From: an uncultured bacterium
GTDB lineage: Bacteria; Acidobacteriota; Thermoanaerobaculia; Multivoradales; JAHZIX01
DNA: 64,000 nt
Direction of reading: 5' to 3'
Assembly (NCBI GenBank): GCA_965368975.1
Contig: CBDUPA010000005.1
Location: forward strand, 249,099-313,098
The notes under the pieces: generated by a model
Database searches by the model: none
What the model saw: the letters and a program-made list of their open reading frames with translations, nothing else
Told to the model about the DNA's origin: nothing
Position numbers and translations under genes: made by a program
Part shown: positions 3,787 through 23,500 of the stretch, piece by piece
Numbering within the stretch: position 1 is the stretch's first letter
How the letters are laid out: every line of letters starts with the position of its first letter

Positions 3787-5217
3787 TCATCCCGGCAGCT
3801 TTGACGCGTCCACATCCTCCGGCACCGCATCCCCTCGACCCTGCAACCACTTGCGGAACGTATCCTTGTCCAGCGCCTTCTCTAGCCCATCCAGGGGATC
3901 CGCCGTCCCGGCTTCGACGAGCTTCTTCAGGCTGTCATCCATCGCCACCATGCCGACCTTGCGGCCGCCGGAGATGACGTCGGGGATCTGGTGGGTCTTG
4001 CCTTCGCGGATGGCGGAGGAGAGGGCGGGGTTGCGCAGCAATACCTCGACGGCGGCGACGCGGCCTCCGCCTTTTCTGGGCAGGAGCTGCTGGGCGACGA
4101 TGCCTTGGATGACGCTGGAGAGCACACCGCGGATCTCGTCGATGCGGCTGGCGGGGAAGACGCTGACGATACGGTCGACGGTCTTGGAGGCGGAGTTGGT
4201 GTGCAGGGTGCCGAAGACGAGGAGGCCGGTGTCGGCGGCGTTGAGGGCGATGCCGATGGTTTCGACGTCGCGCATTTCGCCGACCAGGACGGCGTCGGGG
4301 TCTTCACGTAGGGCCATTCTCAGGGCGTGGGAGAAGCTGGGAGCGTGAGCGCCGATCTCGCGGTGGCTGATGACGCTCTGCTGGTTCTGGTGCACGAACT
4401 CGATGGGATCCTCGATGGTGATGAAGTGCATGGGACGCTTCTGGTTCATCTCGTGGATCATGGCGGCCAGGGTGGTGCTCTTGCCGGAGCCGGTGGGGCC
4501 GGTGACCAGGACCAAGCCTGAGTTCAGGCGGGTGAGTCTGCGCAGGACGCGCGGGAGCTTGAGATCATCGAGGGTGAGAATCTTGCTCGGGATGATGCGG
4601 AAGACGGCGCCCATGCCGCGCTCTTGCTGGAAGAGGTTGACGCGGAACCGGGCGAGGCCGGGGACCTCGTAGGCAAAGTCCATGTCGCCGGTGGCGCGGT
4701 AGCGCGACCACAGTTCCGGCGGCGTGACGGGGCGCATCAGGTTTTCGAAGTCGCGGTCGTCGAGCACACGGTAGCGGATGGGCTCGATACGACCGGAGAG
4801 GCGCAGCATGGGAGGACGGCCGGCGCTCAGGTGCAGATCGGAGGCGCCGCGGTCTTGCATCAGCTTGAGGAAGCGGTCGATGCGGTTGGTGCGGTGCTCG
4901 GTCTCGACGCTCACGGCGGCTGGCTGGGCTGCTTGTTGAGCTGGCGCCGCGGGTTGAGCTGGTGCCGCGGGCTGGGCCGGTGCTGGCTGAGCTGCGGCTG
5001 GCTGGGGTGCGGGCGAGACCGGTGGGGGCGTCGGCGCCGCGGGAGCGGGCGAAGCAGGGGATTGAGTCGCCGGTGCCTGGGGAGCTGCCGGTGCCTGGGG
5101 AGCTGCTGGGACCTGCGGCACTGCTGGTGCTGGGGGAGCCGGTTGGGTTGCAGCTGCGGGGGCCGTGTCGTCGGGTGGCAGGTCGATGACTCTTGGCGTC
5201 TGTGGGGTGTCGCTCAT
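3787..5217 (-). CDS. pilT: PilT/PilU-family ATPase with about 100-aa Pro/Ala/Gln-rich N-terminal extension
   Basis: ASDLHL, RFRVNLF, Walker A GPTGSGKSTT, TIEDPIEF, ALREDPD.VLVGEMRD, GTLHT. Confidence 0.9.
   Translation of the reverse strand: MSDTPQTPRVIDLPPDDTAPAAATQPAPPAPAVPQVPAAPQAPAAPQAPATQSPASPAPAAPTPPPVSPAPQPAAAQPAPAQPAAPAQPAAPAQQAAQPAAVSVETEHRTNRIDRFLKLMQDRGASDLHLSAGRPPMLRLSGRIEPIRYRVLDDRDFENLMRPVTPPELWSRYRATGDMDFAYEVPGLARFRVNLFQQERGMGAVFRIIPSKILTLDDLKLPRVLRRLTRLNSGLVLVTGPTGSGKSTTLAAMIHEMNQKRPMHFITIEDPIEFVHQNQQSVISHREIGAHAPSFSHALRMALREDPDAVLVGEMRDVETIGIALNAADTGLLVFGTLHTNSASKTVDRIVSVFPASRIDEIRGVLSSVIQGIVAQQLLPRKGGGRVAAVEVLLRNPALSSAIREGKTHQIPDVISGGRKVGMVAMDDSLKKLVEAGTADPLDGLEKALDKDTFRKWLQGRGDAVPEDVDASKLPG
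4920..5160 (-). repeat. Low-complexity coding repeats (PAAPQA/PAQPAA) in the PilT N-terminus
   Basis: Tandem 18-nt units such as cggtgcctggggagctgc x2 and repeated PAAPAQ units. Confidence 0.7.
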
Positions 5218-5227
5218 ATCTGGATGC

Positions 5228-7705
5228 TCATGCGTTGGGTTCCTGCTGGCTGAGGAAGCCGGGATCGCACATGGGGGCGAAGGTGGCGGGCTTGTCGGCA
5301 GCCTTCCAGGCGGTCTCGGGGGAAATCAAGTCGGCTTCGACAAGGTCCATGAGGCTCTGGTCGAGCATGCGCATGCCGATCTGGCGACCGATCTGCATCA
5401 GGCCGGGAAGCTGGAAGGTCTCGTCGCGGCGGATCGTCGAGCCGACGCTCATGGTGCCCTTGAGGACCTCGAAGGCGGCGACGCGGCCGTGGCCGCTCTT
5501 GTGCTGGAGCAGACGCTGGCAGACGATGTACTTGAGCGATTCGGACAGTGCCATGCGCACCTGGGCCTTCTCATCGGCCGGGAAGCTGTCGACCAGGCGA
5601 TCGATGGTCTGGACGGCATTGGTGGTGTGCAGGGTGCCGATCATGAGGTGACCGGTCTCGGCGGCTTCGAGCGCCATGCGGATGGTGTCGGTGTCGCGCA
5701 GCTCGCCCACCACGATGATGTCCGGGTCTTCACGCAGGGCGGCGCGCAGGCCGCTGGCGAAGGCCTTGGTATCGCGGCCCACTTGACGCTGGTTGATCAA
5801 GGCCTGCTTGGGTGGATGGACGAACTCGATCGGGTCTTCCAGGCTGATCAGGTGCGACGGCTTGGTCTCGTTGATCAGGTTGATCAGCGCGGTGAGGGTG
5901 GTGCTCTTGCCGCAGCCGGAAGGGCCGGAGATGACGATGACGCCCTGGTGGAAGTCGAGCAGTTCCTTGAGCTGTTCGGGCAGGCCGAGTTCGGCGAAGC
6001 TGGGCGGTCGGTTGGGGATGACGCGGAAGGAGGCGCACAGGCCGAGACGTTGCTCGTAGGCGTTGGCGCGGTAGCGGCCGACTTCGGGGATGGCGTGGCA
6101 GAAGTCGAGGCCCTTCTCTTCCTCCAGGGTCGCCCACTGCTGGTCGTCGAGGGCAGCGCGCAGGTAGGCTGCGCTCTGTTCTGCGGTGATCGGCTTGAGG
6201 TGGTCGAGACGGTAGAGGACGCCGTCGCGGCGTACGACGGGCGGCTCGCCGACGCTGATGTGCAGGTCGGAGGCTTCCATGTCGCGGATTTGCACGAGCA
6301 GCCGGTCGAGCGGGTTGGAGAGCTTGCTAGTGTCGACCTTCGGGCCGCCTTCGCCTTCCTGGTGTGCGACCTGGAACAGCTCGTTCATGCCGCGTAGCAC
6401 GTCGTTGGCGCGCAGGCGTACGTCGGCGTCGGGGTCGCGGTCGCGGACTTGCTTGAGGATGCTGAGCAGACGCCGGTCGTTGAACTTGGAGAACGCCTGC
6501 AGCACCTCCATGCGTACTTCCGGTCGCGGGTCGCGCAGCAGTTGGCTCAGCGGCTGCAATGACGAGACGGCGCCGATGTGGGCCAGCGCGTCGACGGCGG
6601 CCCAGCGGGTGTCTTCATCTTGCAGCATGCGCACCAGATGCGGCACGGCGCGCTCGTCCTTGAGGTTGCCGAGCACTTCACAAGCGGTGACGCGCAGCCA
6701 CCAGTCCTTGTCTGCCAGCAGCTTGCAGAAGGGCTCGACGAGACGTTTGTCGTTGAAGCCTTCGGCCAGCATCAGCGCGGCGGTACGGATCTCGGGTGTC
6801 GGATGGCCGAACAGCTTGACGGCGGCGCGCAGCACCGGCTCGCCGCCTTCGCGCAGGGCCTCGTGGATGCGCAGGCGTAGCCAGCCGGCCATCTTGTGGC
6901 CAAGGTTCAGGATCTCGGTAACGGCCTGCTCCGCACTGCTGGAGTCGATCAGGATCTTGATCGCGCTGCGCCGGGTCTGCTCGGTGCCGCGGGGCAGCAG
7001 GTCGAGCAGCGAGCGGCGCAGGACTTTCGGGTTGGACTCGAGTTCGCGCCGCAGGTAGCTCTCGGCGATGCGTCGGCTGGCGTCGTCGCCGTCGGCCAGA
7101 CGGTCGAGCATCAACTCGAGGACGCGCGAGTCGGGAGACGTGGACAGCGCCTTGAGCGCGACCTGGGCCAGCTGCAGGTCTTTGTCGCGGCCCAGCTTGA
7201 GCAGCATGTCGAGACGTGCGTCGGGCGGGCTGGTCTCGAGGATCTCGCTCAGCGCCTTGTGACGCATCGCCGCCGGTGCCTCGAACACGGCGCGATCGAG
7301 GTAGGACGCCCGGATACTGCCGGGCAGCGCCAGGGCGACTTCCCAGGCGGTGCGCCGCGCTTGCAGGTCGTCGCTGGTCAGCAACTGCTCCATGGCGCCA
7401 TGGACGGCCGCAGCAGGCAAATGCTCGACCAAGGGCAGCAAGCCCTCGCGCATTTTGGCCGACTTGGTGCCCAGCTCGGTGACGAAAGCTTTGACGCCCT
7501 CGGCGTCGGCGCCGCTGACGAATAGCTGGGTGCCGCTCTGGCGTACCGCGCTGTCCTGGTGCACGACCAGCGGCACTAGCTCTGCGCTTTGCTTGGGCGG
7601 GCTCTGCTGCAGCTGGGCCAGCAGGGCGTCGCGCTCTGCTGGGTCGCCCCAGCCGCTGGCGGCGAGGGTCTGGACGGGCGTCTTCTTGCTGCCGAAGAGG
7701 GCCAT
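5228..7705 (-). CDS. HEAT-repeat-PilT ATPase fusion protein (825 aa)
   Basis: N-terminal about 450 aa of HEAT/PBS-type repeats (LLADKDWWLRVTACEVLG, LLRDPRPEVRMEVLQAF). C-terminal PilT domain: ASDLHI, GPSGCGKSTT, EDPIEF, LREDPDIIVVGELRD, TGHL.IGTLHT. Confidence 0.9.
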   Translation of the reverse strand: MALFGSKKTPVQTLAASGWGDPAERDALLAQLQQSPPKQSAELVPLVVHQDSAVRQSGTQLFVSGADAEGVKAFVTELGTKSAKMREGLLPLVEHLPAAAVHGAMEQLLTSDDLQARRTAWEVALALPGSIRASYLDRAVFEAPAAMRHKALSEILETSPPDARLDMLLKLGRDKDLQLAQVALKALSTSPDSRVLELMLDRLADGDDASRRIAESYLRRELESNPKVLRRSLLDLLPRGTEQTRRSAIKILIDSSSAEQAVTEILNLGHKMAGWLRLRIHEALREGGEPVLRAAVKLFGHPTPEIRTAALMLAEGFNDKRLVEPFCKLLADKDWWLRVTACEVLGNLKDERAVPHLVRMLQDEDTRWAAVDALAHIGAVSSLQPLSQLLRDPRPEVRMEVLQAFSKFNDRRLLSILKQVRDRDPDADVRLRANDVLRGMNELFQVAHQEGEGGPKVDTSKLSNPLDRLLVQIRDMEASDLHISVGEPPVVRRDGVLYRLDHLKPITAEQSAAYLRAALDDQQWATLEEEKGLDFCHAIPEVGRYRANAYEQRLGLCASFRVIPNRPPSFAELGLPEQLKELLDFHQGVIVISGPSGCGKSTTLTALINLINETKPSHLISLEDPIEFVHPPKQALINQRQVGRDTKAFASGLRAALREDPDIIVVGELRDTDTIRMALEAAETGHLMIGTLHTTNAVQTIDRLVDSFPADEKAQVRMALSESLKYIVCQRLLQHKSGHGRVAAFEVLKGTMSVGSTIRRDETFQLPGLMQIGRQIGMRMLDQSLMDLVEADLISPETAWKAADKPATFAPMCDPGFLSQQEPNA

Positions 7706-7781: not shown

Positions 7782-8321
7782 CTATTCCAGCGTGAAAAGG
7801 GGATCGCCGCCGTCGACGTTCTGCCCCGGTTGCACGTGGAGCTTGGTGACCGTGCCGGCCTGCTCGGCGACGATTTCGTTCTCCATCTTCATCGCCTCGA
7901 GCACCACAATGCCCTGGCCTGTCTCGACCTCCGCACCCTCTTCGATGAGCACCGCGACGACGCGTCCGGGCATGTAGGCGGTGACTTCTTGCCGGCCGCC
8001 AGTACCCGCGCCGGCGGCGGCTTCCTGGGCCAGGAAGGTCAGCGGGTCGGTGACGGTGGCCAGGCCGTGGCCGCAGTGGCCATTGCTCGGGCTCAGCTGA
8101 TAACGACCGCTCCCCTGGGGGTGGACGGCGACCTCGAACTGCGACTCGACACTGTGGTTGTCGGCGGTCTCGACGCGCGTACGCAGGCTGTGCAGGTGGG
8201 CGCCGATGCGCACCGCGTCGACGTGGTAGCTCGCCTCGCCGACGCGCACTTGCCAGCCATCGCCGACACGTTCGGCGTTCACCCGCTCCTGGCGGCCATC
8301 GAAGGTGACGATCAGCTCCAT
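7782..8321 (-). CDS. Biotin carboxyl carrier protein of an acyl-CoA carboxylase (179 aa)
   Basis: Start re-assigned to ATG 8321 (GAGGAG RBS, overlaps the biotin carboxylase stop). MPGRVV and the EAMKMENE biotinylation motif. Confidence 0.9.
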   Translation of the reverse strand: MELIVTFDGRQERVNAERVGDGWQVRVGEASYHVDAVRIGAHLHSLRTRVETADNHSVESQFEVAVHPQGSGRYQLSPSNGHCGHGLATVTDPLTFLAQEAAAGAGTGGRQEVTAYMPGRVVAVLIEEGAEVETGQGIVVLEAMKMENEIVAEQAGTVTKLHVQPGQNVDGGDPLFTLE

Positions 8322-9853
8322 GGGTCTCTCCTCAGACTGGTGCTGCGGCCGCTCTGGCGCCAGTAGGATCGGTACGCGCCGGCACCCTCGGCGGGTACGG
8401 ACGCCAGTCGTTCGCTGTCTTCGGCGAAGGCCAGGGCGGCGGCGATGAAGGGCAGGTCGGGCAGGTCGTTGCACTCGGTGGGTTGCAACTCGCCAGCCGC
8501 CAGCTTGCGCTCGAGCATGTCGTTGTCGAGGTTGCCAGCCAGGAAGTCGGCGTCGTCGAGCAGTGCACGGTAGAGTGGGATGGTGGTGCGGATACCCTCG
8601 ACGCGCATCTCGGCGAGCGCCCGGCCCATGCGTTGCACGGCCTGCTGGCGGTCCTCGCCGAAGAAGATCAACTTGGCGAGCATCGGGTCGTAGTAAATCG
8701 GGACCTCGGCGCCTTCGTAGACGCCGGCATCGACGCGAACGCCCGGACCATCGGGCCAGCGCAGCATGCGGATCAGGCCCGGTGAAGGGGCAAAGCCGCG
8801 GTAGGCGTCCTCGGCGTAGAGGCGTAGCTCGATGGCGTGACCGCGCGGTTCGACATCGTCATACCGCGCGTCGAGAGCTTCGCCCCGGGCGACCGCCAGC
8901 TGTGCCGCCACCAGGTCGAGGCCGGTGACCATCTCGGTGATCGGGTGCTCGACCTGCAGGCGGGTGTTGACCTCGAGGAAGTAGAAGTCCTTGCCGTTGG
9001 CGTCGAGCAGGAACTCGACGGTGCCGGCATTGGTGTAGCCGACCGCGGCGGCGGCGCGCACGGCAGCTTCGCCCATCCGCTTGCGCAGGTCGGCATCGAC
9101 CACCGGCGACGGTGCTTCTTCGACCACCTTCTGGTGCCGGCGCTGCAGCGAGCACTCACGCTCGCCGAGCGAGACGATCTTGCCGTAATGGTCGCCCAGC
9201 ACCTGGATCTCGATGTGGCGCGGGCGGACGACGAACTTCTCCATGTAGACGGCGTCGTCGCCGAACGAGGCTTTGGCTTCCGAGCGCGCGGTGCGGAACG
9301 CCTTGGGCAGTTCCTCGGCCGAGGGCACCATGCGCATGCCCTTGCCGCCACCGCCGGCCGCCGCCTTGAGCATGACCGGGTAGCCGATCGTCTCGGCTGC
9401 AGCGACAGCGGCGTCGACGTCGGGCAGCGGGTCGCGGCCGCCGGGAACCACTGGAACGCCGGCGTCGATCATCATGCGGCGGCTCTCGACCTTCGAGCCC
9501 ATCGAGGCGATCGCCGACGGCGGTGGTCCGATGAAGATGACGTTCGCGTCGGCGCACATCTGGGCGAATTCGGCGTTCTCGGACAAGAAGCCGTAGCCGG
9601 GGTGGATGGCATCGGCGCCGATTTTCACCGCCAAGTCCACGATCGCCTGACCGCGCAGATACGACTCGCTCGAGGGCGCCGGCCCGATGCAATAGGCCTC
9701 GTCGGCCAGCAACACCGGCAGCGCTTCGCGGTCGGCTTCGGAGTACACCACCGCCGCGCGGATGCCCTGGTCGCGCAAGCCGCGCAGCACCCGCACCGCG
9801 ATCTCTCCGCGGTTGGCGATCAATACCTTCTGGATCGTTTTCGTCTCGCTCAT
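8312..9853 (-). CDS. accC: Biotin carboxylase subunit of acetyl/propionyl-CoA carboxylase
   Basis: KVLIANRGEIA, HPGYGFLSEN, GGGGKGMR, RECSLQRRHQK, FLEVNTRLQVEH, YYDPMLAKLI. Confidence 0.93.
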   Translation of the reverse strand: MSETKTIQKVLIANRGEIAVRVLRGLRDQGIRAAVVYSEADREALPVLLADEAYCIGPAPSSESYLRGQAIVDLAVKIGADAIHPGYGFLSENAEFAQMCADANVIFIGPPPSAIASMGSKVESRRMMIDAGVPVVPGGRDPLPDVDAAVAAAETIGYPVMLKAAAGGGGKGMRMVPSAEELPKAFRTARSEAKASFGDDAVYMEKFVVRPRHIEIQVLGDHYGKIVSLGERECSLQRRHQKVVEEAPSPVVDADLRKRMGEAAVRAAAAVGYTNAGTVEFLLDANGKDFYFLEVNTRLQVEHPITEMVTGLDLVAAQLAVARGEALDARYDDVEPRGHAIELRLYAEDAYRGFAPSPGLIRMLRWPDGPGVRVDAGVYEGAEVPIYYDPMLAKLIFFGEDRQQAVQRMGRALAEMRVEGIRTTIPLYRALLDDADFLAGNLDNDMLERKLAAGELQPTECNDLPDLPFIAAALAFAEDSERLASVPAEGAGAYRSYWRQSGRSTSLRRDPWS

Positions 9854-9854
9854 G

Positions 9855-9885
9855 GGACCGCCGATGTTAGCACCATCGGCGGTCC
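9855..9885. promoter_or_regulatory. Perfect 12-bp inverted repeat abutting the accC start codon
   Basis: GGACCGCCGATG-ttagcac-CATCGGCGGTCC; 1 nt from the accC ATG and 13 nt downstream of the small peptide stop. Confidence 0.6.
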
Positions 9886-9898
9886 TCCGGACTCCGAG

Positions 9899-10033
9899 TC
9901 AGTCGGTCTCGTTGCAGGTACCAATACGCCGTGTCGGAAGTCCGCCCGCGGCTTCGGTCAACTCTTGTTCGGCCAGTTGCTGCAGGGTTTCGCGCTTGAG
10001 TTCGAGCTTCAGTTTGTGCTTCGCGAGTTTCAT
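9899..10033 (-). CDS. 44-aa double-glycine-leader RiPP precursor-like peptide (not in the ORF track)
   Basis: Hand translation: MKLAKHKLKLELKRETLQQLAEQELTEAAGG-LPTRRIGTCNETD*. Strong AAGGAG RBS 7 nt upstream; KLxLxRETLxxL and ELxxAAGG leader motifs. Confidence 0.8.
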   Translation of the reverse strand: MKLAKHKLKLELKRETLQQLAEQELTEAAGGLPTRRIGTCNETD

Positions 10034-10125
10034 GCATCTTCTCCTTTATAGCAGGTTAGGGGGGCGATGGTTGGAAGATACCATCGTGCGGAGCACCTTG
10101 GTATCCTGCCTGGATGCACGATCCA

Positions 10126-11391
10126 ATGCTCGATCTCGATTATGTCCGTGGACAATTCCCAACCCTGAGTGCCCACCCTGACTGGTCCTTCATGGACAAC
10201 GCCGGTGGCAGTCTACCGCTGCGCGGTGTGATCGACGGTGTGGCGGACTGCTTGGCTCGCTGGCCGGTGCAACTGGGTGCCAGCTACGAGGTCAGTGCCG
10301 AAGCGACACGGCGCTTTGCCGAGGCGCATGCGACGATGGAAGCGTGGATTGGTGCCGCGCCGGGATCTGTCGTTCTCGGCCCGTCGACGACGCGCAACCT
10401 GCACATGCTCGCGGCGGCGCTACGGCCGCTGTGGCGAGAGGGTGACGAGGTGATCGTCACCAACCTGGACCACGAGGCCAACATCGGGCCCTGGCGGCGC
10501 CTGGCGGCGACGGGGATTGTGGTCAGGGAATGGCGTGTGCATCCCGAGTCCGCGCGCTTGGAGCTCGACGACCTCGACGCCCTGCTCAGCGAGCGCACAC
10601 GCCTGGTCGCCTTGACGCATTGCTCCAATATCGTCGGTGAGATTGTCGACATCGCCGAGGTCGCGCGCCGGGTGCACCAGGCGGGGCCGTCGGGGGATGG
10701 TGTCTCGGAAGATGGGGTGATGGCTGGTGCGAAGGTGTGCGTTGACGGGGTCGCCTACGCGCCACACCGTTGCCTTGATGTGACCGTTTGGGACGTCGAC
10801 TTCTACGCCTTCTCTCTGTACAAGACCTACGGCCCGCACCTGGCGCTGCTCTACGGCAAACCCGAGCTGCTGCGCGCGGCACGCAACCAGAATCACTTCT
10901 TCTACGAGGAAGACCAGGTGCCGGGCAAGTTCGAGCCGGGCAATGTGAGCCACGAGCTGGTGGCGGCGTTGCCGGCGATCCCGCACTACTTCGAACAGCT
11001 GGCGTCACGGCATGGACTCGCCGGAGCCGGCGGCGCCGACACGCTGATTCGCAAGCACGAAGCACAGCTGGCGTCGAGGCTGCTCGACTTTCTGACGTCG
11101 AGGTCCAATGTGCGCGTCCTCGGCCCGACGACAGCCGATCCGGACGTCCGAGTGCCGACCCTTGCCTTCCTCCTCGAGGATGCTGCGGGTAGAGCGAGGA
11201 AGTCGAGCGACATCCCGCCGCTGCTCGACCGCGAGCACATCGCTATCCGCTGGGGTGATTTCTACGCCCGCCGCCTGATGCAGGATCTGGGCTTGCTCGA
11301 GCAGGATGGTGTGGTGCGCGTCAGTCTGGTGCACTACAACACGCTGGACGAGGTGGACCGTCTCGTCGAGGTGCTGGAGCGGGTGCTGTAG
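10126..11391 (+). CDS. Class V PLP-dependent enzyme (cysteine-desulfurase-like, lacking the SufS/IscS catalytic Cys)
   Basis: VRGQFP.L, FMDNAGGS, LDHEANI.PW, VDGVAYAPH, FSLYKTYGP (PLP Lys), VRVSLVHYNT. IRWGDFYA replaces SufS RAGHHCA. Start 10126 or 10114. Confidence 0.85.
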   Translation: MLDLDYVRGQFPTLSAHPDWSFMDNAGGSLPLRGVIDGVADCLARWPVQLGASYEVSAEATRRFAEAHATMEAWIGAAPGSVVLGPSTTRNLHMLAAALRPLWREGDEVIVTNLDHEANIGPWRRLAATGIVVREWRVHPESARLELDDLDALLSERTRLVALTHCSNIVGEIVDIAEVARRVHQAGPSGDGVSEDGVMAGAKVCVDGVAYAPHRCLDVTVWDVDFYAFSLYKTYGPHLALLYGKPELLRAARNQNHFFYEEDQVPGKFEPGNVSHELVAALPAIPHYFEQLASRHGLAGAGGADTLIRKHEAQLASRLLDFLTSRSNVRVLGPTTADPDVRVPTLAFLLEDAAGRARKSSDIPPLLDREHIAIRWGDFYARRLMQDLGLLEQDGVVRVSLVHYNTLDEVDRLVEVLERVL

Positions 11392-11595: not shown

Positions 11596-14500
11596 ATGGA
11601 GTTCGCGACCCTGCTCGACGTCCTGCGGGCGCGAGCTGATTCCTATTCGCAGCAGGAAGCATTTGTATTCCTCGCCGATGGTGAGGAGGTCGGTGAACGG
11701 CTCACCTTCGGGCAGCTGGACCGCGACGCGCGTGCACTCGGGCACCGGATGCGCGCACACGTCGGTGGTGGGCTGGCCGGGGAGCGTGTGCTCCTGGTGT
11801 ATCCACCGGGGCTGGATTTCATCCGCGCCTACATGGCTTGCTTCTACGCCGGGGCCGTCGCGGTGCCGGCGTATCCGCCGCGCTTCAACCGGCCGCAGCC
11901 GCGACTGCGCTCGATCCTGCGCGACGCGCGACCGAAGCTGGCACTGACGGTCGACAGTATCGCGCGCCGCGTCGACGCGCTGGCGCGTCACGTGCCGGAG
12001 GCTGCCGCGCTGGAGTGGTGGTCGACGGACGACGGCTGGCTGCAGGGCGCCGACGCGGACGCCGCCGCGCAGAGCTGGGTGCATCCCGATCTGGGGGCCG
12101 GTGATCTGGCGTTCCTGCAGTACACGTCGGGCTCGACGTCGCTGCCCAAGGGCGTCATGGTCAGCCATGGCAACCTGATCCACAATGAGACGCTGATCCG
12201 TACCGCCTTCGGCCACGACGCTCTTGGTGAAGGGCCGGCCGGTGAGGGGACGGCGACGCGCGTGGTCAGCTGGCTGCCTCTGTACCACGATATGGGCCTG
12301 ATCGGCGGCATCCTGCAACCGCTGTTTCTTGGCACCACGTGCGTGCTGATGGCGCCGATGTCGTTCCTGCAGAAGCCGCTGCGCTGGCTGCAGGCGATCA
12401 GCGACTGGGGCTCGAAGCTGGATCTGGACACGACGTCCGGTGGTCCCAACTTCGCCTACGAGTTGGTGGCGCGACGCGCGACCGCGGAGGACCTGCAGGG
12501 ACTCGACCTGTCGCGTTGGCGCGTGGCGTTCAACGGCTCCGAGCCGGTGCGCGCGTCGACGCTGCGCCGTTTCGCCGAGGTCTTCGAGCCCTGTGGGTTC
12601 GACCCCAAGGCCTTCTTCCCGTGCTACGGCCTGGCCGAGACGACGCTGTTCGTCACTGGCGGTGTGCCGGAGCGGGGGCCGGGTGGACAGGGTGCGGTGA
12701 TCGAGAGTTTCGACGACGTCGAGCTGGGCAAGGATCGGGCGGTCGAACTGGCGGAGGCCGAAGGTGGACGGCCGCTGGTCGGCTCAGGGCGGACCTGGCT
12801 GGATCTGGATGTCGCTATCGTCGAGCCGGACAGTCGGCGCCGAGCGGCACCGGGCACCGTGGGGGAGATCTGGGTTCACGGACCGAGTGTGGCGCAGGGG
12901 TACTGGGCCAACCCGGAGCGGACGCGCAACGACTTCCACGCCACCATTGTGGGTGAGGACGCGACCCGGCACTATCTGCGCACCGGCGATCTGGGCTTCT
13001 TGCATGCCGCGAGCCACGGCCGTGCCGGTGCCCAGCTCTATGTTACGGGTCGTTTGAAGGACCTGATCATCCTGCGCGGGCGCAACTACTACCCGCAGGA
13101 TATCGAGCTCACCCTCGACGACGCACACCCGGCGATCCGTGCCGGCTGCGGTGCCGCCTTTGCGCTCGAGGTCGAGGGCGAGGAGCGGCTGGTGGTGGTG
13201 CAGGAGCTGGAGCGACGGCAGGAAGCCGACGCCGATGGCGCACTGGAAGCGGTGCGTCACGCGGTGTCTGAGGCGCACGAGCTGGCCGTCTACGAGGTGG
13301 TGCTGCTGCGCGCCGGCACGCTGCCCAAGACCACCAGCGGCAAGATTCAGCGCCACGCCGCCCGCCGTGGATACCTGGAGGAGTCCCTGCACATCATCGC
13401 CAGGAGTGGTGCCGCGGAGGCGAGTAACGCTGTCTCGCATGGCAGTGGCGATGTCCAGTGGGAGGCGCTGAGTCGCCAGGCTCTCGACGGTCTCGATCTC
13501 GACGCCCAGCGTCAGCTACTGGAAACGTACCTCGTGCACGCGGCGGCGCGCGCCTGCGGCCTCAAGGCCGAGCAGGTGACGACGGATCTGCCTCTGCCGC
13601 GCCTGGGGCTCGACTCGTTGGCGGCGGTCGAGCTGCAGCACCGTGTCGAGGGTGATCTGGAGTTGGAACTCGAACTGGCGCCGCTGCTCGAAGGCGTGAC
13701 GCTGGGCGAACTGGCGTTGCGCCTGGCCAAGCAGGCGGCGCGGCCAAGGACGGCGACCGCGGCCGCCGCCGAGGTCGAGATGGAAGTGCCGGCGGAGACG
13801 GCGTCGCAGGGGCAGCGTTCTCTGTGGTTTTTGCAGCGTTTGGCGCCCGAGAGCGGCGCCTACCACATCGCGGCGGCGGCACGCCTGGTGGCCAATCCCG
13901 CGGGTGCCGGCTTTGGTGGTGTCGACCTCGATACGGCCGCCTTGCGCTGCGCTCTGGCGGCTCTGGCGTTGCGCCACGGCGAACTGCGTGCCAGCTTCCC
14001 GGGTGTCGATGGCGAGCCGCGCCGACGCCGGCACGAGGACCTGGTGCCGGAGCTGCTAGAAGAACCGGTCGCCGCGGCCCAACTGGTCGATCTGGCGGCG
14101 CGCCTGGCCCTGCTGCAGGAGTGCGTCAGTCGCCCCTTCGACCTCGAGCGCGGTCCTTTGCTACGCCTCTTTGTTCTTCGGCCGCAGGCCGCGACGAACC
14201 AGGTCGAAGAGAGCCAGGCAGCGATCGCGCTGCTGGTCGTCCACCATCTGATCGCCGACTTCTGGTCGCTCGGTGTGCTGGCACGCGAGCTCGACATCTT
14301 GTACCGGCACGCGCTGGAAACCCCGGAGCGTTCGGCGGCTGACCTCGCCGCTGTGCTGGCACCGCTGCCGGCGAGCTACGACGATCACGTGCGCTGGCAG
14401 GCGCAGTTGCTGGCGGGGGCCAAAGGCGAGGCGCAGCTGCGTTACTGGCGGCAGCAGCTCGACGGTCTGCCCGTCCTCGACTTGCCAACCGACCGTCCGC

Positions 14501-17500
14501 GGCCGGTGGTGCAGAGCTGGGCTGGCGACACGCGGCCCATGCGGCTCGGGTCGGCACTGTCCGAGCGCCTGCACAGTTTCTCGCGCGACCGCGGAACGAC
14601 TCTCTTCGTCACTCTCTTGACCGCCTGGCAGTCGCTGCTCAGTCGCTTGTCGGGGCAGCACGACATCGTGGTCGGAGCCCCGACGGCTGGTCGCCGTCAA
14701 GCCGAGCTGGCGGGGGTTGTTGGCTACTTTGTCAATCCGGTGGCGCTGCGCGCCGACCTGCGGCCGCCACGCCAGACGAACGGCACGCCCAACGGGGCCC
14801 CTCCGGGCACTTTGTCCTTCGGTGAGCTGGTGCGCGAGGGCCACGTGCGTTTGCTCGAAGCCTTCGCCAACGCCGACTATCCGCTGGCCTTGCTCGCAGA
14901 ACACCTGCAGCCGCAGCGCGACCCGGCCCGACCACCACTGTTCCAGGTCATGTTCGTGTTGCAGCGGGCGCAAAAGCCGGAGGAGCAACCGCTCGGTGCC
15001 TTCGCGCTCGGTCTGCCGGGCGGCCGGCTGCGCCTGGGCCCGTCGGAAGTCGAATCGCTGGCCTGGCGCGAGCCGTACACGCCCTTCGACCTGGTGTTGC
15101 GCAGCGCCGACCTGGTCGATCCCGAGGGGCACCGCCAGCTCGGCGTGTCGCTGCAGTTCAATCGCGACCTCTTCGATGGCACCACGATCGAGCGCTGGCT
15201 GCGCCTGTGGCGGCGTTTCCTGGTGGCTGCTGCTGCCGAGCCGTCGCGGCCAGTAGAGAGTCTGAACCTGCTGTCGCCCACCGAGCGTCACCAGCTGTTC
15301 ACCGAATGGACCGACACTGGCGCACCCTACCCACGGAACGCCAGCGTGCCGGCACGTCTGGCCGAGGTTGCCGCGGTGCGGCCCGAGACGGTAGCGGTGG
15401 TCGGTGGGCGTATGCACTTGAGCTACGGCGAGTTGGTGCGTCGTGCCAGTGGTCTGGCTGGCGAGTTGCAGCGACGCGGTGTGCGTCCCAGCAACCTGGT
15501 GGCGGTCTCCACCGAACGTACGGCCGACCGCGTCGTCGCTCTGGTGGCGATCCTGTGGAGTGGTGCCGCGTACCTGCCACTCGACGCCCGCCTACCCGCC
15601 GCGCGCCTGAACCTGCTGTTGCGCGACGCCCGCCCGGTGTTGTGCCTCGCCGACGCCCGCTCGCGCGCCGTCTGGCCCCGCGAGGAGATCACCGAGGATG
15701 TCGAAGCGGCGGACCTCGAAGCCCTCATCACCGGCAGCCAGGGTGCCGAGACCGCGGGTACGAGCCTGCAGCAGGCCGTCGGGGGTATCCGGGCCGACGC
15801 CGAGCAACTGGCCTATGTCCTTTACACCTCCGGTTCCACCGGCACCCCCAAGGGTGTCGCGGTAGCGCACCGGTCGATCTTGCGCCTGGTCACGGCGTCC
15901 CTGGGCGGCGACGCCAACTATATGGACTTCACGCCGCACGACACCTTCCTGCAGCTGTCGTCGCTGTCCTTCGACACCTCGACGTTCGAACTCTGGGGCT
16001 CCTTGCTCAGCGGCTCGCGCCTGGTCATGCTGCCTGGCCATGGTGCACCGGTGCTGACCGAGCTGCGCCGCGAATTGACGCAGCAGCAGGTCAGCGCCCT
16101 GTGGCTCACCGCGGGTCTGTTCCACCAAGTGATCGAGGAAGACGTCGCGATGCTCGCCCGCCTGCGTGTGCTGATGTCGGGTGGCGACGTGCTGTCACCG
16201 CCTCACCTGCGCCGCCTGCTGGCCGCCTTCCCTGGCCTGCGCATGGTCAACGGCTATGGCCCGACCGAAAATACGACGTACACCAGTTGCCACGTGATGA
16301 CGGGGGGCCCCGAGGCCATTCCGCCGGGGTCGGTGCCGATCGGTCGCCCGGTGGCCGCGACCACGGCGGTGGTGGTCGATCACGCCGGCCGTCCGGTGCC
16401 CCTGGGCGTTGCTGGCGAGTTGTGGACCGGTGGCGACGGTGTGGCGGTCGGGTACTACGCGCGACCGGCCCAGACGGCTTCGGTGTTCGTGCCGGATCCC
16501 TTCGGCGCCTCGGTGGCAGTTCCCTCCCAGGGCACCCACAGCGGGGTGCCCCTACAGGCGGGATCTCTGGCGCCCGACGGCGGGGCCCGTCTCTACCGTA
16601 CCGGTGACCTGGTGCGCTGGCGTGCCGACGGCGTGCTGCAGTTCTTCGGCCGCATCGACCGCCAGGTAAAGATTCGTGGTTTCCGCATCGAGCCGGGCGA
16701 GATCGAAGCGGCGCTGAGCCAGCATCCGGCGGTGCGCGAGGCGGCGGTGGTGGTGCTGCGACCCTCTGGCGGCGCCATTCTTGTTGGTTGCCTCGTGTTG
16801 GAAGACTCGGAACTGGAGAATGGCCAGCAGCTCGCGGACGGTGATCTGCGCGAGCACCTGGGAGGGCGCCTGCCCGAGTACATGGTGCCGTCGCGCTTCG
16901 CTTACTTCGATGTTCTGCCGCTCAACACCAGTGGCAAGGTGGATCGCAACGAGCTGGCCCGCCGTCTGCCCGCGCTGCTCGCCGAGCAGGCCCCGGCAGA
17001 GGGGGATGCACCGCGCACCCCGACCGAGAAGCTGATCGCCGAGCTGATGGCGGAGTTGCTGGAGCACGGCACCGGCGGGGCCACGCTGGGCCGTGACGTC
17101 GACTTCTTCGCCCTCGGCGGTCACTCGCTGATGGCCACGCGCCTGATTTCCCGCCTGCACGCCGCGCTCGGCGTCGAGATTCCGCTGCGCCTGCTGTTCG
17201 AGGCTCCGACGCCGGCTCGTCTCGGCACTGCCGTCGACGCGCAGGTGAAAGCGCAGGGCGGTAGCGTCCTGCCAGCGCTCGAACCGGTGGCGCGACCCGA
17301 GCGGCCCGCGCTGTCGCCGGCCCAACATCGCCTGTGGCTGCTCGACCGTCTGCACCCGGGCAGTCCCGCCTACAACATTCCCGGGCGCCTGCACCTACGC
17401 GCCGAGTCGACCGTGGCCGGGCGGAGCTCTGGCGGGCTGGATGTCGAGAAGCTGGAAGCGGCTCTGCGTCAGATCGTCGAACGCCACGAGGTCCTGCGTA

Positions 17501-20500
17501 CCGTGTACCCGACGGGTGACGACGGCGAACCCTGGCAGCAGATCCAGCCGCGCGTCGAGACCGCGCTGCCGGTGCTCGACCTGAGCCACCTCGCTGCGGC
17601 TGATCAGCAGCGCGAAGCCGGACGGCTGGCGCGACAGGAGGCGCTACGGGCCTTTGATTTGGTCGCGGGACCGGTGGTGCGGTGGCTGTTGGTGCGGCAA
17701 GACGCGGTGGGGCAGGATCTCCTGCTGACGCTCCACCACATCGCGGGTGACGGCTGGTCGCTGGGCGTGCTCGTACGCGAGCTGGAAGCGCTCTATCGGG
17801 GCGACGACCTGCCGCCGCTGCCGGTGCAATACGTCGACTTTGCCGCCTGGCAGCTGGATTGGCTGCAAACCGGCGCAGCGGTGGCGCGCGACCTGGCCTG
17901 GTGGCGCGACGAGCTGGCTGGTGTCGAGGCGCTGCCGCTGCCCACGGATCATCCACGACCGGCGACGCCGAGCTATCGTGGCGGCGCCGTGCCGATCGCG
18001 CTGGATAGCGAGCGGGGAGGGGCTGCTAGTGCTCGCCTCGACGCCTTCGCGCGGGAGCGCGGCGTGACTGCCTTCATGGTGCTCAGTGCCGTCCTGCAAG
18101 TCTTGCTCGGCCGGCTGGCCAACCAGGCGGACGTGCCGCTGGGGACGCCGGTGGCGGGTCGTGCGCATCCGCGGACCGAGAGCCTGATTGGTTTCTTCGT
18201 CAACACCCTGGTGCTGCGCGCCGACCTGGGCGGGGATCCGACCTTCGGCTCGTTGCTGGAGCAGGTGCGACGGTCGACGCTGGATGCGCTGGCGCACCAG
18301 GCGGTGCCCTTCGAGCAGCTGGTCAATGAACTGACGGGTACGGCAGCGTCGCGGCGCGATCTGGCACAGACACCTCTCTTCCAGGTCATGCTGGCGCTCA
18401 ACAACGCGCCGTTCCGCGCGCCTGTGCTGCCGGGCCTGGACGTCGAGGCGAGTGCCGTCGAGGCAGCAACGCAGAAGTTCGACCTGACGCTGTCGCTGGC
18501 CGAGACGCCCGGGGGTGGGCTGCGCGGCGCTCTGGGCTATGCCAGTGACCTCTTCGAGCGCACCACTGCCGAGCGCTGGGCCGCTCATTTCCAGCGTCTG
18601 CTGGCGGCCGCCCTGGCGCATCCGGAAACCCGTCTTTCCGAGCTGCTGATGCTGAGCGACAGCGAGCGCCGCGAGATCCTGAGCTGGTCCGCCGAGGCGT
18701 CGACCGCGGACGTACCGGCCGAAGACGTACCCGCCGCCGAGAACGCGACCGTGCCGGCGTGGATTGCCGCCCAGGCCGTGCTGACGTCGGAGGCTCCGGC
18801 CGTGCGCTTGGTGGGTGGGGACGCGGTGCTGAGCTACGCCGAGCTGGACGCGCGCGCCGCGGCGCTGGGGGCTCGTTTGCGCGCCTTGGGTGCCGGTCCT
18901 GAGAGCGTCATCGCGGTGCTGGCCGAACGGGTGCCGGCGGCCCTGGTGGCGTTCCTGGGGGTGTGGAAGGCCGGTGCCGCGTTTCTGCCGCTCGATCCGG
19001 CGGACCCCCACGAGCGGTTGCGCTTCGTGCTGCACGACGCCGCGCCGCTGGCGCTGGTGGCGGCGGGGGATGTCGCCGAGATCCTGGCGGCCCTGGAGAG
19101 TGAGGTGCCCGTCGTCGAGATCGAATCCGAGGTCGGGGCTCCCCACGGTGGAGGCTCTCCGGACGCCTCCGCCCAGGACGGTTCCTCTGCGCTGATCGAA
19201 CGGGATCACCTGGCCTACGTCCTCTACACCTCGGGTTCGACCGGTCGACCCAAGGGAGCGGGCATCCACCACGGTGCCCTGGCCGACTACATGGCGTGGG
19301 CGAAACGCGAGCTGCTGGAGGGTGTTACGGCGATTCCGGCGACCACGCGCTTCAGCTTCGACGCGGCGTGGAAGCAGCTCTTCGGGCCGCTGCTCGGCGG
19401 TGGCTGTGTGCGTCTATGGCCGTCCGAGCTGGTGCAGGACCCGCCGCGCGCGCTCCAGGCGCTGGCGAACGGCACCGACACCGTGGCTTTCAATGGCGTT
19501 CCGTCGTTGTGGCGAGCGCTCCTGCTGGCCGCCGAAGCCGGCGACGGTCCGGTGCCGACACACCTGCGGCGTCTGCTGTTGGGTGGCGCAGCGTTGCCGA
19601 TCGAGTTGGTGCGCCGCACCCACGCTTTGCTGCCCGGAGTCGACATCGTCAACCTCTACGGGCCGACCGAGACGACGGCGAATGCGTCGGCGTCGAGAGT
19701 GACGGCCGATGCTCGCTCGGTGACCCTCGGTCGCCCCGCCGCGCGCCTGCGTCTCCACGTACTGCGCCTCGCCGGTGCGGCCGTGCCGCTGGCCGAGCCG
19801 CTGCCGGAGGGTGTGCCAGGTGAGCTGTGCATCGGTGGCTCAGGCGTTGCCCGAGGCTATCTGGGTCGCCCTGGCCTGACGGCCGCGCGCTTTGTGCCGG
19901 ACCCGTTTGTGGGCACTGGATCCCGGCTCTACCGTACCGGTGATCTGGTCCGCTGGCGCTGCCGCTCCGAAGACCAACACGCCAGTGGAGGCCCCGCCGA
20001 ACCGGAGTTCCTTGGCCGTCTCGACCACCAGGTCAAGATCCGCGGACTGCGCCTGGAGTTGGGCGAGATCGAAGCCCAGCTGCAATCGCACCCGGCGGTG
20101 CGTGCGGTGGTGGCACTGGTGGCCCGACGCGAAGAGGGCAGTTCGGACCAGTTGGTCGCCTTCGTCGAGGCGCCGGAGCTGGCGGCACGACCGCCGCAGC
20201 AGATCGACGCCGAGGCCGCTGTACTGCGCGACTTCCTGCGCGGCCGTGTACCGGAAGCGGCGGTCCCGTCGGCGCTGTGGATTGTCGATGCCCTGCCGCG
20301 TCTGGCGGGAGGTGCCGGTGGCAAGGTCGACCGCCGAACGCTGGCGGCCGAGGCGCCGTCGCGCCTGGCTGAGACGACGGCGGCGATCCAGACGCACGAA
20401 CTGAGCCCGGCTGAGCAGATCCTGGCCGGAATCTTCGCCGAGGTGTTGGGCGTACCCGTCGAGAGTGTTGGAGCTCGGGACGATTTCTTCGAGCTCGGCG

Positions 20501-23500
20501 GCCACTCGCTGCTCGCCACGCAGGTGACCTCGCGCATCCAGAAGGCGTTCGGTGTCGACGTGCCGCTGCGCCGCCTGTTCGAGGCGCCGCGCCTGAGCGA
20601 GCTGGCGACGGCGGTGGAAGCCGAGTTGCGCGAAGGCCGTCCGGCTCCGCCGCCGCTGGTGCGCGTTTCGCGCGCTGGGCGTCTACCGCTGTCCTTCGCC
20701 CAGCAACGTCTATGGTTGCTCGATCACCTGAATCCCGGTTCGCCGGCCTACAACATCCCGATCGCGGTGGCGCTCGAGGGGGATCTCGACGTCGAGGCCC
20801 TGGAGGCTGCGCTGGTCGCCCTGGTGGTCCGGCACGAAGTGCTGCGCACGCGCTTCCCGGTGGTCGTCCGTGAGAACGGGACGGAGCAGCCGTACCAGGA
20901 GATCTGTGAGCCGGCCTTTGAGTTGGAGGTCGTCGAAGCCAGAGCCCAGGACGTCGCGGACATCGTGCGCGAAGAGGGTCGCCGGCCGTTCCACCTGGCG
21001 ATGGGGCCTCTGTTGCGGGGGATGTTGGTGCGGGAGAGCAAGACGTCCGGGAGCGCCGTCCTCCTTCTCACCCTGCACCACACCGTCGCCGACGGCTGGT
21101 CGACCGGTATCTTGCTACGCGAGCTGCAGGCCCTCTATGCGGATGCCTCCTCGGAAGCACTCTCTGAAGGGCGCGCCAAGCTGCCACCGCTGCCGGTGCA
21201 GTACGCGGACTTCGCAACCTGGCAACGCGGCTGGCTACAGGCCCAGGATCTGGAAGAACGCAGTGTCCTGGACGTCCAGATCGACTTCTGGCGCCGTCAG
21301 CTGGGGGATGCGCCGGCCCTCGACCTACCGACCGACCGACCACGGCCGGCGGTGCGGGCCCTCGCGGGGGCGACGCTGCCGGTGCACTTGCCGGCGACGC
21401 TGGTGCGGGGGCTGGAGGCGCTGGCAAGGCACCAGGGAGCGACTCTCTTCATGGTGCTGCTGGCGGGCTTCCAGGCCCTGCTCAGTCGCTGGGTCGGCCT
21501 GATGCGCGACGCCGACGCGCCGGTCAACGTCGGTTCGCCGGTGGCCGGTCGGCGGGTGGCGGAGACGGAGGGGCTGATCGGCCTCTTCGTCAACACGCTG
21601 GTGCTGTCGGGCGACCTCGCCGATGGTCCGGACTTCGTCGAGCTGCTGGCGCGCACCCGGCGTGTGACGCTGGATGCCTATGCGCATCAGGATGTGCCGT
21701 TCGAGAAGCTGGTCGAGGCGCTGGTGCCGCGGCGCGACACGGCTGTCACGCCGCTCTTCCAGGTGCTGCTGGCGCTGCAGAACGCGCCGATGCCGGCACT
21801 CGAATTGACGCGGGAAGGCGAGCACGGTGCGCAAACCGTGACGCTACGGCCCCTCGATCCGGACACCGCGACGTCCAAGTTCGATCTCAGCCTGCTGCTG
21901 CGGCCGGAGCGTTCTGGAAATGCAGACGCGGCCAAGCGTGGACTGAGCGGTGGCCTGGAGTACGACACGGCGCTGTTCGATGCCACCACCATGCTGCGTC
22001 TGTGGCACGCCTTCGAGCGCCTGCTGCACGGCATTGTCGCATCGCCGCAATCGGCGGTGGCGACGCTTTCGCTGTTCGGCCGCGCCGAGCGCCACCACCT
22101 ACTCTACGAGTGGCCGCCGGGTGCCGCGCTGCCTGAGCGTCTGGACGGTCCGCCCTCGACCCTGCACGAGCTGGTGCTGGCGCAGATCCAGCGCACGCCG
22201 GACGATACCGCGATCCTGACCGCGCAGCGGCCGGAGAGCGGTGGTACGCAGACGGACAAGGCGAAGAGCCCGCTGATCCGCTGGAGCTACCGTCGCCTGG
22301 ACGCTGAGTCGGCTCGCGTCGCGGCGCACGTGCGGCGTCTCGGTGTCGGGCCAGAAGTGACCGTCGGTGTCAGCATGCGGCGCACTCCGGCGCTAGTGGC
22401 GTCGATCCTCGGCATCCTGCGTGCCGGCGGCGCCTACGTGCCGCTCGATCCGGCCTATCCGCCGGAGCGCCGCGCCTTCATGCTCGAAGACGCACAGATC
22501 TCGATGCTGCTCACCGAGCGTGACCTGCAACCGCCGGCCGACCTGGCGTGTCCGCTGATCTTGATCGAGGACATCCTGACGCCGTGGCAGGCGCCGGAGG
22601 TGGAAGCGGGGACGCCGGAGGCGGACACCCACCCACCCACCCAGGGCACCCACATGGGGGTGCCCCTACCCAGATCCGGTTCCGACTCCCGTGTAGGGGC
22701 GGCTCCCGAATCCCAGCTGGCGCACATCTTCTGCACCGACGTCTGTCCCGACAACCTGGCGTACTCGATCTACACTTCCGGTTCCACCGGACGTCCCAAG
22801 GGCATCGCGATCTGCCACCGTACGGCGGTCAACATGCTGCGCTGGTCGTACACGGTGTGGTCGAAGGAAGAGCTGGGCGCCATGTTCGCCGGCACCTCGA
22901 TCAATTTCGACATCTCGGTGTTCGAGACCTTCGCGCCGCTGACCACCGGCGGCATCATGACCATCGGCGACGATGCGCTCGACCTGGCCGGTCACCCGGC
23001 GGCTGATCGCATCAAGCTGGTCAACACAGTGCCCTCGGCGGTCGCCGAGCTGGTGCGCCTGCAAGCGATCCCGCCGTCGGCGACGACGGTCAACCTGGCC
23101 GGTGAGGCGGTGCCGAGAAAGCTGCTGCGGCAACTGGAGAAGCTGCCCAACACGCCGCGTGCAGTCAACCTCTACGGCCCGTCGGAAGACACCACCTACT
23201 CGACCTGGGCGATCATCTCGGACGTGCGGCACGGCGTGGTCAACCGCGAAGACGACACCTCGGCGGTGTCGGTAGGACGCCTGATCTCGGGCAGCTACGG
23301 CTACCTGGTCGACCGCCGCGGACAGCTGGTGCCGTTGGGAGTGCCCGGCGAGCTGTACATCGGTGGTGGCGGTGTCACGCGGGGCTACCTGCAGCGTCCG
23401 GCCCTGACCGCCGATCGCTACATGCCCGACTGGGTGACGCCGGCCAGTGCTGCCAGTGCCACGACGACGGCACAGGGCGGTGCCCGCCTGTACCGGACGG

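Follow-up and report, generated by a model that had tools for sequence, protein, structure and literature searches.

The window analysed here, a 64,000-nucleotide stretch of DNA, is the end of contig C5 in the genome assembly of an uncultured, probably Thermoanaerobaculia-like bacterium of the Acidobacteriota (7.13 Mb, 65% GC, 59 contigs, denoted below by C and a number). Close to position 10,000 it carries a 44-codon ORF on the reverse strand (Table 1). The translation of the ORF, MKLAKHKLKLELKRETLQQLAEQELTEAAGGLPTRRIGTCNETD, is identical to that in a preliminary description of this DNA, which had pointed out the ORF and its strong ribosome-binding site; the frame and the AAGGAG sequence were reproduced exactly. 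That description called the ORF hidden. It was indeed missing from the ORF track used there; however, the exact 44-aa protein is already public, without a name, in a protein collection drawn from NCBI, Logan and ENA.

Table 1. Features of the peptide locus (window positions) and of the stand-alone export modules (contig positions)
Feature	Position	Strand	Detail
Biotin carboxyl carrier-like protein gene	7782..8321	-	next in the accC operon; Pfam Biotin_lipoyl, 69 bits
Biotin carboxylase gene (accC type)	8312..9853	-	downstream neighbour; Pfam Biotin_carb_N, CPSase_L_D2, Biotin_carb_C
GC-rich hairpin, perfect 12 bp, 7-nt loop	9855..9885	-	between peptide stop and accC start
Precursor peptide gene, 44 codons plus TGA stop	9899..10033	-	ATG at 10031-10033; TGA at 9899-9901
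Core, residues 32-44: LPTRRIGTCNETD	9902..9940	-	one Cys (C40), three Thr (T34, T39, T43)
Leader, residues 1-31: MKLAKHKLKLELKRETLQQLAEQELTEAAGG	9941..10033	-	read directly off the sequence
Shine-Dalgarno sequence AAGGAG	10041..10046	-	7 nt upstream of the peptide ATG
Class V aminotransferase / cysteine desulfurase-like gene	10114..11391	+	divergent neighbour; Pfam Aminotran_5, 169.7 bits
NRPS gene, first of the cluster	11596-27567		aminotransferase gene stands between it and the peptide gene
Two paralogous stand-alone HlyD-HlyD-PCAT modules	C13:~119100-124470; C8:~192190-197650		loci L153, L154; no precursor nearby

The accC-type gene follows the peptide gene on the same strand after 45 nt, and its product scored 645.7 bits against NCBIfam NF006367 (cut-off 597). 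Because this score and the Pfam domains identify the ATP-grasp protein as a genuine biotin carboxylase, a RiPP ATP-grasp ligase as neighbour was ruled out. The intergenic hairpin has a minimum free energy of -32.7 kcal/mol (z = -3.3), equalled by one of 200 shuffles, and no T-run follows it. Its end is 1 nt from the accC ATG, and the sequence GGAGG is found on the reverse strand in 9886-9898, just 5' of the hairpin. Since no Shine-Dalgarno sequence was seen adjoining the accC ATG, it may be that the hairpin, once folded, moves the remote GGAGG into the vicinity of the accC start. On the other side, the product of the divergent aminotransferase gene reached 331.5 bits against TIGR01976, under the cut-off of 352. 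Farther along the reverse strand are two neighbouring genes for T2SSE/PilT-like ATPases (3787-7705), the second of which (825 aa) has a long N-terminal HEAT-repeat region.

GC content at the three codon positions of the peptide ORF is 0.64/0.40/0.67 and that of the long genes of the genome 0.70/0.48/0.81; the high-low-high phase is the same and GC3 is lower in the ORF. Between 9500 and 10500 the sigma-70 promoter scan gave no site, and the single terminator-like site, inside the ORF on the opposite strand, is within chance expectation. No Rfam family matched 9500-10400.

A dispersed family of precursor genes

The leader contains the motif LxLxRx5L (L10, L12, R14 and L20) and ends in a double glycine (G30-G31). 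The only NCBIfam match to the peptide at E ≤ 10 was NF038153 (lant_leader_L1a), which aligned with residues 7-31 at 14.7 bits (E = 0.026), below its curated cut-off of 22; there was no match of the Nif11/NHLP type. When the whole genome was scanned with NF038153, 36 places were found at E ≤ 1. The cut-off was passed by 16, and the peptide was the weakest of the 36 with 13.8 bits. However, the two precursors adjacent to the LanB gene of this genome also score low (21.3 bits for one, no match at E ≤ 0.01 for the other), so that the score of the peptide is weak evidence against membership. Two relatives from its subfamily, P0004 and P0007, scored 22.4 and 28.8 bits.

A leader HMM was also made from the sequences of the genome itself, leaving out the peptide and its closest paralog. 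With this HMM the peptide had E = 2e-8 (36.2 bits) and ranked 27 among 112,005 six-frame segments, whereas the best of the reversed sequences used as control had E = 0.18. A profile made only of the nine precursors located beside a LanB, LanC or C39 transporter gene (four from this genome and five from metagenomes) gave the peptide E = 1.3e-6 (30.3 bits) against a best reversed control of E = 0.51. Several of these maturase-linked leaders read KKLELxRETL, like that of the peptide. The 44-codon ORF is a real small gene and no chance frame. Its leader had been likened to those of class I lanthipeptide precursors, and it is indeed of the LxLx(K/R)x5L...GG type. Walker 2020 reports class I LanAs from Bacteroidetes whose LxLxKx5L leaders often end in GG and whose gene clusters include C39 proteases (PMC7268733).

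A protein search of the genome with the peptide as query returned 23 leader-like places, and a profile made from the genome's own hits extended the set to 52 frames at E < 1e-3. They are distributed over 19 contigs and 36 loci, 25 of which are singletons, and some members stand in tandem groups of two to four; sites of the family include C11:197981-199391, C3:15693-16587, C16:153-612 and C10:227235-229002. The common form is M(K/R)K..KLxLxRETLxxL....GG/GA; the core after it is hypervariable and mostly Cys-rich, with medians of 25.5 residues and 3 Cys. The core of the window peptide, 13 residues with 1 Cys, is among the shortest. Single-Cys cores occur in seven of the 52 members; the other six measure 12 to 31 residues, and one directly adjoins a LanC gene.

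A Shine-Dalgarno core at -18 to -4 was present in 49 of the 50 ATG-started members, compared with 71 of 443 random ATGs. The 3' flanks of the members fold more stably than either control: their mean is -28.0, while shuffled sequences average -21.6 and windows taken at random from the genome -23.8. Several members have hairpin-plus-T-run terminators. These features (Shine-Dalgarno sequence, ORF and structured 3' end) mark the family members as self-contained cassettes. Upstream of 50 members no k-mer was common beyond the level of shuffles, that is, no shared co-regulation motif was found.

Most precursors are orphans: for 48 of the 52 the nearest LanB, LanC, LanM or PCAT gene is over 10 kb away, and for four it is within 10 kb. 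The orphan members are flanked by unrelated, often housekeeping genes, such as rpoC, ribosomal protein genes, groES/EL and pantothenate genes. Since the family is scattered in this way, the place of the peptide gene near the NRPS gene and upstream of accC looks incidental. The preliminary description had connected the gene with the NRPS-PKS cluster 1.6 kb away; no result links the two, and the proposal that the peptide is a ligand of the TPR histidine kinases in that cluster has no support. In annotation of the window, the peptide gene should be set apart from the adjacent NRPS cluster.

Maturation and export genes

Contig C5 gave no match to LanB (PF04738), LanC (PF05147) or the C39 domain, so the preliminary description was right that LanB, LanC and PCAT genes are missing from the window. 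They are present elsewhere in the genome. On C13, two precursors of the family are located between two LanC genes on one side and, on the other, the gene for a 1159-aa LanB (C13:48594-52070), which matches Lant_dehydr_N at 558 bits and Lant_dehydr_C at 223 bits. This is the only full-length class I LanB of the genome, and its relatives at about 50% identity are mostly from Thermoanaerobaculia or Acidobacteriota. Dehydratases of class I work with glutamyl-tRNA (PMC9993889). Two more precursors adjoin solitary LanC genes at C1:561 kb and C13:186 kb, and three larger proteins also hold a LanC domain.

The genome encodes three C39 ABC transporters (PF03412). Two of these PCATs are 58% identical to each other and 50-59% identical to the precursor-adjacent PCATs of metagenome loci L117, L128 and L133. 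The 16-kb LanBC locus on C13 contains no PCAT gene, so this genome must in any case rely on something acting in trans. Near the C13 copy of the HlyD-HlyD-PCAT module are genes for an MvdD-type pre-ATP-grasp protein (C13:115477-116541) and a sigma-54 activator. The third PCAT, more divergent, is encoded at C13:97270-99534; about 10 kb from it there is a 44-aa ORF (C13:109017-109148; L152:17018-17149) whose double-glycine leader is of another kind (…ELNDEALEDVAGG) and whose short core contains Cys.

Other lanthipeptide-type enzymes were also found. A split LanB is encoded at C12:117003-121000 (L151:9003-13001), with an elimination domain of 367 aa and a glutamylation domain of 921 aa. Ahead of it stands a 40-aa Cys-rich ORF whose short leader is of another kind (MNKSKKPVSLNLELETVES...); this is a separate RiPP locus. 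A class II LanM of 1166 aa (DUF4135 plus LanC-like) is encoded at C18:296-3796 (L150), at the very start of its contig; the gene falls below the GC3 threshold of 0.70 used in gene calling. No L1a precursor is within 10 kb of this LanM gene at the contig edge, and the precursor of the LanM itself may be off contig C18.

The same type of leader is linked to such enzymes in metagenomes. Four closer sequences served as queries for a metagenome scan, which gave 37 loci with the leader. The flanks of 15 loci were scanned: a LanB, LanC and/or C39 ABC transporter gene adjoins the precursor in five of them, with KLELxRETL-type leaders, and unrelated genes, mostly on short contigs, were found in the other ten. 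Loci L119, L126, L130, L143 and L148 hold a recurring precursor subfamily with long Gly/Cys-rich cores (…TCACTDxCxxxCGxGxCGCGGS…SGCATNC); in L119 and L130 this precursor is adjoined by genes for an ECF-type sigma factor and a VWA/YfbK protein, with no maturase gene.

The preliminary description had named a genome free of leader homologues, RiPP maturases and C39 transporters as speaking against its reading. All three are there: 52 leader homologues, LanB, LanC and LanM genes, and three C39 transporter genes. Because leader homologues, class I maturases and C39 transporters all occur in this genome, modification of a dispersed precursor in trans, as had been proposed, is the best reading, and it is from these genes that we infer maturation.

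The core, its relatives and alternative readings

The closest paralog of the peptide is encoded on C12 (C12:60846-60998, reverse strand; L013:8847-8999) and has 51 aa with the core LPTTPIGTCSDAEACMSTVY. Identity between the two is 61% in the genome search and 50% over the full alignment, and the likeness of the two loci at the DNA level is limited to the ORF. The C12 gene is about 160 nt upstream of a single-copy gene for a type-2 IleRS and divergent from an ABC_tran plus ABC2_membrane pair; a 12-bp hairpin follows it.

When 1.84 billion representative proteins were searched exhaustively with HMMER, 115 matches had E ≤ 1e-3. Among the 30 sequences inspected, a conserved core, LPTTPIGTC(S/T)DxExCMST, stands after GG/GA in P0002, P0004, P0005 and P0007, and P0009 has LPTTPLGSC; the C12 paralog carries this core too. 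The P-series relatives are singletons on short metagenome contigs, unnamed or called 'hypothetical'. The peptide keeps L-P-T-x-x-I-G-T-C, which is common to the C12 paralog, P0004, P0005 and P0007. T34 stands six residues ahead of C40, and this Thr...Cys spacing, conserved in the LPTxxIGTC subfamily, is compatible with a ring.

The distribution of the peptide is narrow. A word-indexed protein search with the peptide returned only the peptide itself, no orthologue was found in five genomes of the same family or 35 of the same order, and a pattern scan with peptide and paralog over 185,579 species genomes gave 238 pattern matches, none of which was confirmed. Upstream of accC, a leader-type ORF was found in none of 80 loci at E ≤ 1, including orthologues with 72% (an uncultured Acidobacteriota MAG), 70% (a Thermoanaerobaculia MAG) and 67% identity (another Acidobacteriota MAG). 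NF038153 itself matched none of the five same-family genomes at E ≤ 1e-3 and five of the 35 same-order genomes, such as G007, where the matches are mostly in tandem on a single contig, and G030, where they are spread over eight contigs. Since few same-order genomes are positive and no orthologue of the peptide was found, the family is patchy and the window copy lineage-specific. We also considered self-resistance, as the two peptide genes precede accC and IleRS, both of them targets of antibiotics. This idea was rejected, since the IleRS gene is single-copy and the accC orthologues of 67-72% identity lack the ORF.

Beyond the TC of the shared motif, N-E-T-D-stop in the peptide corresponds to S-D-A-E-A-C in the paralog, so the peptide has no second Cys. 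At least two Cys are present in ten of the 12 aligned subfamily members, and the peptide and P0027 have one. Because the core stops where its relatives carry the Cys of a second ring, it could be a truncated derivative. The main rival explanation is a decaying copy: a truncated duplicate of an LPTTPIGTC(S/T)DxExCMST precursor that has lost its second ring. Translation of such a copy may continue, but its maturation to an active product would have ceased. The residues before the stop that replaces Ala-Cys still align conservatively (NETD versus SDAE), and the lowest NF038153 score of the 36 places, the failure to find an orthologue elsewhere and a GC3 of 0.67 under the genome norm of 0.81 are consistent with decay. 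On the other hand, the start codon, the Shine-Dalgarno sequence, the full leader and the GG site are intact, the N-terminal ring motif L-P-T-x-x-I-G-T-C is kept, and six other members, including the one beside a LanC gene, also have a single Cys. Compared with the paralog, dN is 0.45 and dS 0.93 over 44 codons, and 0.36 and 1.5 for the core; these are rough values from few sites, and the constraint that dN < dS would imply is only suggestive. We consider decay unlikely, although no other alternative comes as close.

The second rival explanation is export without modification. The double-glycine leader would then serve only for cleavage and export by a PCAT, and the product would be a linear 13-mer acting as a signal or a bacteriocin-like peptide. 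In the consensus of double-glycine leaders, hydrophobic residues occupy -15, -12 and -7, Glu occupies -8, and GG occupies -2 and -1. The leader of the peptide fits this consensus, and the stand-alone HlyD-HlyD-PCAT modules have no adjoining maturase gene. However, LanB or LanC genes physically accompany leaders of this type in four cases in this genome and five in metagenomes, and the conserved Thr...Cys spacing of the subfamily is what a ring requires. Thus export of an unmodified peptide appears improbable. That there is no such peptide gene at all, the frame being a regulatory uORF, an accC attenuator or a chance frame, is very hard to believe: the short distance to accC on the same strand, the strong hairpin ending next to its ATG and the lack of a sigma-70-like site in 9500-10500 would suit such an element, but the frame has a highly significant match to a 52-member family sited beside unrelated genes, the 80 accC loci of other genomes have no such upstream ORF, and Rfam was blank over 9500-10400.

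Proposed maturation and comparison with known systems

From the evidence above, we think it probable that the ORF is a precursor gene, one of about 52 cassettes, which functions now or did so until recently, that its product is matured in trans and that its position is incidental. With its L1a-like double-glycine leader and Thr/Cys core it would be of the kind employed in class I lanthipeptide systems of Gram-negative phyla. The following pathway is proposed for it. The transcript would be short, covering this cassette, and its translation would start at the strong Shine-Dalgarno sequence. The LanB encoded on C13, the sole full-length one, would recognise the leader (KLELKRETLQQL...) and dehydrate Thr34, possibly also Thr39 and Thr43. 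A stand-alone LanC would then add Cys40 to the dehydrated Thr34, yielding one methyllanthionine ring spanning 7 residues. Ring C of nisin has the same span. Finally, one of the HlyD-HlyD-PCAT modules (C8, ~192 kb, or C13, ~122 kb) would cut after Gly31 and export a 13-residue peptide with a single ring.

Taken alone, the peptide adds little to a leader family that is already known. The precursor family, on the other hand, appears to be an unusually large and dispersed class I set whose arrangement resembles that of the class II prochlorosins. As a tentative extension, it is possible that this genome holds a class I counterpart of the prochlorosins, in which one full LanB, a handful of LanCs and two HlyD-HlyD-PCAT exporters would serve about 52 independently transcribed cassettes; the window peptide would be a minimal single-ring member (LPTxxIGTC). 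In the literature searched, we found no description of a dispersed class I precursor library. A 2026 survey on BGC-rich Acidobacteriota, in the part of its text available to us, characterised only class III and class II-like clusters (PMC13083261). In Walker 2020, cluster mining set a distance limit of seven genes between precursor and LanC (PMC7268733). Mining limited by distance would overlook 48 of the 52 precursors of this genome.

If the orphan precursors are matured in trans, one dehydratase would give rise to a combinatorial library of class I lanthipeptides, a principle known for the class II prochlorosins. Peptide engineering would gain a leader/enzyme pair from such a system, which would also allow one to study how several LanCs divide diverse cores among themselves.

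Among known systems, the class I LanAs with L1a leaders (NF038153; the Bacteroidetes LanAs of Walker 2020, the family of the pinensins) are similar to the peptide in the basic N-terminus, the L-x-L-x-(K/R)-E-T-L-x-x-L motif, the GG end and the Thr/Cys core, and leaders of this type stand beside LanB, LanC and C39 transporter genes both here and in metagenomes. The peptide differs from them in having Arg for the Lys of the motif, a score under the curated cut-off and a very short core with one Cys. Its host is an Acidobacteriota MAG and not a member of the Bacteroidetes, and its contig holds no maturase gene.

The double-glycine leader peptides of class II bacteriocins and lanthipeptides, which are cut by PCATs, share with it the GG end and the ELxxxxGG spacing, and the genome has three PCATs. 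The peptide gene, however, has no adjacent PCAT gene, and its cleavage is predicted from the sequence.

The prochlorosins of marine picocyanobacteria (ProcA and the class II enzyme ProcM) resemble the family in that both comprise many precursors whose leader is conserved while the cores are hypervariable, and most of these are encoded far from the synthetase. Many prochlorosin precursors are distant from their LanM (PMC7268733), and here the same holds for the 48 of 52 precursors more than 10 kb from any maturase gene. In contrast to the prochlorosins, the leader here is L1a-like and not of the Nif11/NHLP type, the linked enzymes, known here from their genes, are class I LanB and LanC and not LanM, and several LanCs stand in place of one promiscuous enzyme.
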